A stretch of DNA of 64,000 nt. Origin: Hyphomicrobiales bacterium. GTDB lineage: Bacteria; Pseudomonadota; Alphaproteobacteria; Rhizobiales; Aestuariivirgaceae. The position numbers and the translations under genes were made by a program. The notes under the pieces are model-generated. The model was not told the DNA's origin, did no database searches, and worked only from the letters and a program-made list of their open reading frames with translations. Numbering within the stretch: the first letter of the stretch is position 1; every line of letters starts with the position of its first letter. Where the stretch lies: positions 17,829-81,828 of the forward strand of contig JALXCV010000023.1 in assembly GCA_026990765.1 (NCBI GenBank), given 5' to 3'. This document shows positions 19,929 through 19,988 of this stretch, in pieces.

Positions 19929-19988
19929 TATTCACGATTTTTCATACAAATTCACGAAAAAAATGTGAAATTCACGAAAATGTCAGTG
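19929..19988. promoter_or_regulatory. Three direct repeats of ATTCACGA with exact 20-bp phasing in the LytTR / RTX-4 divergent spacer
   Basis: ATTCACGATTTTTCATACAA (19929), ATTCACGAAAAAAATGTGAA (19949) and ATTCACGAAAATGTCAGTGT (19969). They start 16 bp from the LytTR gene start and about 150-200 bp upstream of the RTX-4 ATG at 20135. Confidence 0.55.

Follow-up and report, generated by a model that had tools for sequence, protein, structure and literature searches.

A repeat array between a membrane LytTR gene and RTX-4

In the window, i.e., the whole 64-kb stretch of DNA analyzed here, large genes for RTX or FG-GAP/cadherin repeat proteins, at least six in number, fill much of the first 43 kb. 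The repeats under study (array A) lie in the spacer between one of them, RTX-4, and a divergently transcribed gene for a LytTR regulator. Site and pair scores in bits refer to a matrix derived from other loci only, whose maximum for a single site is 16.1.

19125..19913, minus strand: LytTR regulator gene (262 aa); the product has a C-terminal LytTR domain behind four predicted transmembrane segments
19930..19938, minus strand: site S3, proximal to the LytTR gene; minus strand ATCGTGAAT, 20 bp from S2
19950..19958, minus strand: site S2; minus strand TTCGTGAAT, 20 bp from S1; 15.4 bits
19970..19978, minus strand: site S1, distal to the LytTR gene; plus strand ATTCACGAA, minus strand TTCGTGAAT; 15.4 bits
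20135..24532, plus strand: RTX-4, large RTX-repeat protein, divergent from the LytTR gene; HemolysinCabind, E = 5e-79

The octamer ATTCACGA occurs three times on the plus strand, at 19930-19937, 19950-19957 and 19970-19977. A preliminary description of the locus had placed the repeats at 19929, 19949 and 19969, which is one position too low, while the exact 20-bp phasing that it reported stands and its three 20-nt unit sequences match the window exactly. Read on the sense strand of the LytTR gene, the unit is TTCGTGAAT; units 2 and 3 share the 13-mer AAATTCACGAAAA, and the information-rich core of the repeat spans 8 to 10 nt. S3 is the weaker site (ATCGTGAA) because it has an A where 87 of the 88 sites used to train the matrix have a T. 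Both distances given in the preliminary description also agree with the sequence. The LytTR ORF begins with an ATG at 19913-19911, S3 starting 16 bp upstream of it, and on the other side the array lies 157 to 205 bp from the likely ATG of RTX-4 at 20135, close to the 150 to 200 bp reported. This ATG is preceded by AGAGGGA; the longest ORF, in the same frame, starts at 20051.

Membrane-fused LytTR proteins are widespread in Alphaproteobacteria, and the label of membrane LytTR protein is a fair one for the product of the regulator gene. Pfam LytTR (PF04397) matches residues 172-257 with an E value of 7.4e-13 (49 bits versus a cut-off of 22.6), and hydropathy places four hydrophobic 19-residue windows upstream of it (22-40, 55-73, 87-105 and 122-140), joined by short loops, as for four predicted N-terminal transmembrane helices without a periplasmic domain. 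The Pfam search of this protein returned no domain besides LytTR, thus neither MHYT nor heme-PAS. Comparison with relatives revealed that the residues invariant in the family, DHYVEVTT...G.QIHRSHW, are kept. A PDB search with the single sequence found nothing relevant, and one with the family profile gave one weak match, 3d6w (E = 7e-4), which its depositors named a methyl-accepting/DNA response regulator. We propose this array-adjacent protein as the candidate binder of array A.

None of 300 first-order Markov simulations of the window produced an 8-mer present three times at an equal spacing of 9 to 30 bp, and the analytic expectation for such a triple is 4e-4 per window. The real window has one further locus of this kind, an unrelated 12-bp tandem at 10546. 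This tract (10546-10597) consists of three perfect copies of AAGCTTGTTTGA plus a partial fourth and sits between a 7TMR-DISM sensor kinase gene (8462..10471, minus strand) and RTX-2 (10959, plus strand). It has no relation to the LytTR motif and could be the site of another regulator or a slippage-prone tract.

Conservation of the motif upstream of LytTR homologues

Homologues of the regulator (26 to 38% protein identity) were collected from alphaproteobacterial genomes and metagenomes, yielding 85 loci, 68 of them nonredundant, in each of which the gene start was located. An unbiased hexamer count over positions -120 to +8 placed TTCGTG (43/68) and CGTGAA (42/68) at the top of the enriched words, against an expectation of about 1.8 estimated from 4426 control windows taken from these loci (p about 1e-50). 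Motif-free autocorrelation pointed to the same phasing as in the window, i.e., exact 6-mers recur most at 20 to 22 bp in the upstream regions, and the coding and far-upstream controls display codon periodicity only. At a threshold of at least 13/16 matches, 43 of the 68 upstream regions contain two TTCGTGAA-like cores spaced by 20 or 21 bp, versus 0.16% of the 4426 control windows; between 12 and 30 bp, a spacing of 20 bp accounts for 30 loci and one of 21 bp for 13, with all other spacings at 5 loci or fewer. These pairs adjoin the gene start, with the same core orientation and phasing as in the window. The preliminary description had recognized the architecture of a LytTR operator in array A, and this reading is well supported by the core, orientation and 20- to 21-bp phasing conserved among the homologues.

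The matrix obtained from the relatives reads T-[T/a/g]-C-G-[T/c]-G-A-A-[a/t]-[t], its C and G being invariant in 88 of 88 sites. Applied to both strands of 817 kb, it finds pairs scoring 19 bits or more at the gene start of 48 loci, without exception in the sense orientation of the gene; both this figure and the 43/68 count thus attest a conserved association with the LytTR-domain gene. Only five other pairs reach 19 bits in the 817 kb, namely, an array upstream in L008, three reverse-strand readings of sites already counted and a true second array in L009. Among cultured organisms, Alexandriicola marinus LZ-14 carries two copies of TTCGTGAATT (sites at 5950 and 5970 of locus L002), 20 bp apart and ending 21 bp before the ATG of its homologue, their orientation with respect to the gene being that of the window repeats. 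Conservation extends to an 8-mer and its phasing but leaves the spacers free, as expected of a site bound by a protein.

The sites could in principle belong to a different regulator, e.g., the NarL-type protein encoded at 7806..8546 (minus strand) or a CRP/FNR-like factor recognizing TTCAC...GTGAA. The RTX cluster indeed houses a two-component system composed of that NarL/GerE-type regulator and the 7TMR-DISM kinase; the middle unit of array A does contain the inverted pair TTCAC-N9-GTGAA (19951-19969) already pointed out in the preliminary description; and co-occurrence of the motif with the LytTR gene is compatible with another factor. We nevertheless consider this explanation very unlikely, as the motif accompanies the LytTR gene in 48 loci that otherwise have different neighbors. 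Direct repeats at 20 to 21 bp are a hallmark of LytTR proteins, and NarL-, CRP- and OmpR-type sites are inverted or phased at 10 to 11 bp. The phasing thereby argues against regulators of those types (PMC11347149 and general knowledge). Neither the second array of the window nor the relatives contain the inverted pair, which was rejected as a functional palindrome and looks incidental. A LytTR protein that binds these sites and autoregulates is the parsimonious reading of a motif that follows the LytTR gene while its partner genes change.

As a separate observation, the response-regulator ORF of the two-component system converges with RTX-1 and shares 11 nt with the 3' end of that gene.

A second array upstream of RTX-1

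The only further exact ATTCACGA in the 64 kb is found at 1901, within a second array (array B; 1899-1931) that the preliminary description does not mention. A 13-mer search allowing mismatches uncovered it as AAATTCACGAAAA at 1899 and AAATCCACGAAAA at 1919 on the same strand. It lies between a terminator-like hairpin that follows a pyridine-nucleotide oxidoreductase gene and RTX-1, whose ATG at 2348 is 419 bp downstream.

1901..1909, minus strand: site B1; plus strand ATTCACGAA, minus strand TTCGTGAAT; 15.4 bits
1921..1929, minus strand: site B2; plus strand ATCCACGAA, minus strand TTCGTGGAT; 20 bp from B1; 12.7 bits
2348..7816, plus strand: RTX-1, large RTX-repeat protein; HemolysinCabind, E = 9e-65

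The scan matrix was built without any window sequence; its top score in the 64 kb, 30.8 bits, goes to the pair 19978/19958, followed by 28.1 bits for 1929/1909 and 23.3 bits for 19958/19938. Shuffled windows (n = 300) contain on average 0.067 pairs of at least 19 bits, the best one scoring 24.1. Since this matrix, independent of the window, picks out both arrays, we regard them as bona fide members of the motif family. The fourth-ranked pair, at 7881 on the plus strand (16.9 bits), was taken as a chance match; it falls within the response-regulator ORF, and the top shuffles score higher.

Two minor features deserve mention. A single site at 55974-55984 (minus strand), TTTCGTGAAAT, reaches the maximum of 16.1 bits without a partner at 20 to 21 bp and is probably due to chance. 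Furthermore, a 19-codon minus-strand ORF at 1839-1898, MGGRLFCRLFTTPGDQQSFN, occupies the place that a LytTR gene would have relative to array B; it starts 6 nt after the B1 10-mer TTCGTGAATT (7 nt after the 9-mer) and may be a remnant or have no meaning.

These results also bear on the idea that the repeats are no protein operator, i.e., that they arose by chance or from low sequence complexity, are left over from a segmental duplication, act as plasmid-type iterons or form an RNA element in a leader. The A/T-rich spacer, the fact that iterons are likewise direct repeats of about 20 bp and a plus-strand RNA fold that pairs the repeat region (-17.7 kcal/mol) could be quoted in its favor. However, chance is excluded by the simulations and shuffles. 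Arrays A and B are alike over a 35-bp core only, with no homology between their flanks, which argues that array B is an independent site and led us to reject a segmental duplication. An RNA element was discarded on the basis of fold z-scores of -1.6, -0.9, -0.05 and -0.9, array B being unstructured, and of an Rfam search of the whole 64-kb window that yielded no family at gathering score. Iterons were dismissed as well, because the neighbors found are LytTR and RTX genes rather than a rep gene or origin, and because the motif-carrying relatives are found on contigs that are chromosomal and as long as 2 Mb. Taken together, explanations of this sort are barely credible, and a protein operator remains our reading of both arrays.

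Partner genes and the reach of the regulator

In the relatives, the array always lies in a short divergent spacer shared with a partner gene, and this partner varies. Two of them, L007 (1755-2840, minus strand) and L019 (241-2535, minus strand), have a divergent RTX-repeat neighbor, and more distant ones are flanked by a small membrane protein of the DUF6622 (5 loci) or DUF2306 (4 loci) type. L009 has, in addition to the repeats at its LytTR homologue, a stand-alone second array downstream of that gene (2236-2267), AAATTCACGAAAAAAACTACAAACTCACGAAA, which is placed 29 bp upstream of the -35-like hexamer of a gene for a Sel1-repeat secreted protein (2353..3081) and matches array B of the window in orientation and geometry.

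How far the influence of the regulator extends is a matter on which there is a serious alternative, if an unlikely one: the array may serve only the regulator's own gene, with neither RTX-4 nor RTX-1 under control and the RTX neighborhood being incidental. What is constant throughout the family is the position beside the LytTR gene, the partners being variable; RTX neighbors appear in only 2 of some 85 related loci, and no RTX-4 promoter could be placed near the array. Against this stand array B, which precedes RTX-1 with no LytTR gene beside it, the L009 stand-alone array in the same orientation 29 bp before the -35-like hexamer of the Sel1-repeat gene, and the location of the arrays in short divergent spacers common to the partner gene. 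Control of RTX-4 by the LytTR protein is plausible in the light of the shared divergent spacer, of array B in front of RTX-1 and of the RTX neighbors of L007 and L019.

A putative third site embedded in the coding sequence of relatives

Among the related loci L002 to L086, a third operator-like core (TTCGTGAA or TGCGTGAA) follows the proximal upstream site at a distance of 31 to 32 bp, or three helical turns, within the conserved N-terminal [L/M]-R-E codons (CTT/ATG-CGT-GAA). Codon usage at this place deviates from the rest of the gene. Arg is encoded by CGT in 29 of 39 cases versus 10.5% gene-wide, and Glu by GAA in 37 of 39 versus 49%, a bias that points to selection acting at the DNA level. 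The protein of the window has neither the [L/M]-R-E peptide nor the embedded site; a third upstream site at 20 bp is found instead. The sequence ATTTCACG-ATG-CGTGAAAT of L003 to L005 was considered as an inverted-repeat operator and rejected because it largely consists of codons for the conserved F-T-M-R-E peptide, its CGT-GAA part being reread, on account of the codon bias, as the coding-embedded third site.

Promoters and the sign of regulation

A sigma-70 scan of the 19914-20134 spacer found no convincing promoter for either divergent gene. At the second array, TTGACA-N18-CATTAT (1959..1988, plus strand) matches the sigma-70 consensus at 10 of 12 positions, 30 bp after B2 and oriented toward RTX-1; the array B sites would center near -70 and -90 of this element, which is a consensus match only, such matches being no more numerous than in shuffles. 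In L009, 29 bp lie between the end of the stand-alone array and a TTGCTT-N16-TATTTT match, read by eye, which is followed by the Sel1-repeat gene. The stand-alone arrays of the window and L009 share an inverted orientation and, judged from consensus matches only, have a consistent, activator-like putative geometry.

Activator-type LytTR sites occur 4 to 11 bp upstream of the -35 box (PMC6193735), and neither array A nor array B has its repeats at such a distance. In the relatives whose protein begins with M-R-E/Q, the sites are at -51 and -31 from an ATG that, by our reading of the sequences, has no Shine-Dalgarno sequence, and the proximal site of more distant relatives coincides in part with a putative GTG start. 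Positions so near the start codon suggest occlusion or promoter-embedded control of the CoxC kind, not a classical activator site. In this respect, the geometry resembles the repressor-type CoxC more than the activators.

The low-GC relatives L009 (1358-1385), L012 and L017 present a canonical promoter of the type TTGTGA-N16-TATAAT (or one ending in AATAAT or TAATAT) about 18 bp after the proximal repeat, an arrangement that fits activation. In the window, the third repeat (TCGTGA) is about 6 bp nearer to S2 than the TTGTGA hexamer of the L009 type is to its proximal repeat.

Relation to characterized LytTR systems

The preliminary description agrees with the literature: canonical LytTR sites comprise two 9-bp direct repeats with 10 to 13 bp between them (PMC11347149; PMC6193735, Table 2). 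Array A has more than the minimum of two direct repeats of about 8 to 9 bp, and a phasing of exactly 20 bp, within the 20 to 21 bp that such spacers imply, is found in both arrays of the window. A search for papers on this motif together with LytTR gave none combining both among the matches listed. Two characterized membrane-bound LytTR proteins emerged from the literature search, HigX (2025 preprint, bioRxiv 10.64898/2025.12.09.693126) and CoxC (PMC11347149).

CoxC of Afipia carboxidovorans is a membrane-bound alphaproteobacterial repressor whose three repeats overlap the -35 box, and RcoM1 of Paraburkholderia xenovorans recognizes three TTCNNGCA repeats; in both systems, LytTR binds three 8-bp direct repeats with 12- to 13-bp spacers (PMC11347149). 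Array A is a predicted direct-repeat LytTR operator whose layout is closest to this three-repeat type. Repeat number and spacing agree with the CoxC/RcoM-type sequences TTCNNGCA and TTNNNGCN, and TTCGTGAA fits their T-T-C-N-N-G, but position 7 is A instead of C. Compared with RcoM1 alone, T-T-C-N-N-G-N-A is common to TTCNNGCA and TTCGTGAA, the last positions being GCA and GAA, respectively. The sensor modules differ, i.e., MHYT in CoxC and heme-PAS in RcoM versus a plain N-terminus of four hydrophobic segments in the window protein, and so do the targets, which are cox genes for CoxC/RcoM and, by prediction, the regulator's own gene or RTX genes here.

HigX (CCNA_03131) of Caulobacter crescentus, a proposed membrane-tethered DNA binder, combines four transmembrane helices with LytTR (bioRxiv 10.64898/2025.12.09.693126). 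It shares this architecture and an alphaproteobacterial origin with the window protein, but its ChIP-seq motif, ATGTTASC/GSTACCAT, is a spacerless inverted repeat of 8 bp (same preprint), whereas 20-bp-phased direct repeats of TTCGTGAA are found here. That the one characterized four-helix LytTR protein has so different a motif weighs against the LytTR-operator reading; the gene neighborhood also sets the two apart. The higX gene is almost always beside a COG4188 hydrolase gene (bioRxiv 10.64898/2025.12.09.693126), and none of the 16 neighbor ORFs examined here matched a hydrolase, the partners being RTX, DUF6622, DUF2306 and other proteins. The window subfamily should not be filed as HigX.

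The LytTR regulatory systems HdrRM/BrsRM have autoregulatory repeats 12 bp apart, autoregulation at the own promoter being a defining feature, and these systems share with AgrA, ComE, PlnC, AlgR and VirR pairs of repeats of about 9 bp separated by 11 to 13 bp (PMC6193735). HdrRM/BrsRM and the classical regulators are soluble, with a receiver domain or a separate membrane inhibitor, whereas LytTR is fused to a membrane module here. Their repeats precede the -35 box and activate; the array of the window abuts the start codon, and that of the relatives overlaps it.

A membrane-anchored regulator and its predicted operator

The comparative evidence lends strong support to the central claim of the preliminary description, a LytTR-type operator of the membrane LytTR gene next to the array, with a window-independent matrix ranking the array as the best in the 64 kb. 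We thus read the three repeats as the predicted operator of the adjacent membrane-anchored LytTR transcription factor, with a probability of about 0.8; they are very probably the regulator's own docking sites. Two features of the array sit uneasily with this reading. S3 deviates at a nearly invariant position, and only 16 bp separate the array from the start codon, a placement that differs from that of activator-type sites (PMC6193735).

At the mechanistic level, each unit of 8 to 10 bp, T-T-C-G-[T/c]-G-A-A-[a/t]-[t] on the sense strand of the gene, would be bound by one LytTR domain, and the 20-bp phasing, equivalent to two helical turns, would place successive protomers on the same face of the DNA, as in AgrA, ComE, HdrR, RcoM and CoxC. 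Because the array lies in the upstream region of the regulator's own gene, we propose that it mediates autoregulation. A proximal site only 16 bp away from the start codon would speak for repression by occupancy or for homeostatic control rather than for classical upstream activation. The same LytTR protein probably also acts on the divergent RTX-4 and, through the two-site array at 1901-1929, on RTX-1, where the geometry would suit activation. Speaking against control of RTX-1 are the 419 bp that separate array B from its start and the background frequency of the promoter match.

A broader scheme, which we put forward only as a tentative and rather unlikely one, would cover the whole family of orphan membrane-tethered LytTR proteins. 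They might operate a three-site autoregulatory switch made of S1, S2 and the codon-embedded site, the lineage of the window having moved the third site upstream and a separate array recruiting the RTX/adhesin cluster. If true, genes for proteins exported across the membrane would be under the control of a factor that is itself anchored there.

To conclude, the mechanism, a direct-repeat LytTR operator, is textbook; these findings are of value for the motif and the candidate regulon that they assign rather than for any new biology. The subfamily gains a concrete predicted recognition sequence, TTCGTGAA-N12-TTCGTGAA, along with a conserved autoregulatory layout, and A. marinus LZ-14 is a cultured organism that carries the motif. 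In the genome of the window, the regulator appears to be linked to at least two giant RTX-repeat genes, and this putative link provides a handle on the control of secreted adhesin/toxin clusters in an uncultured marine bacterium.
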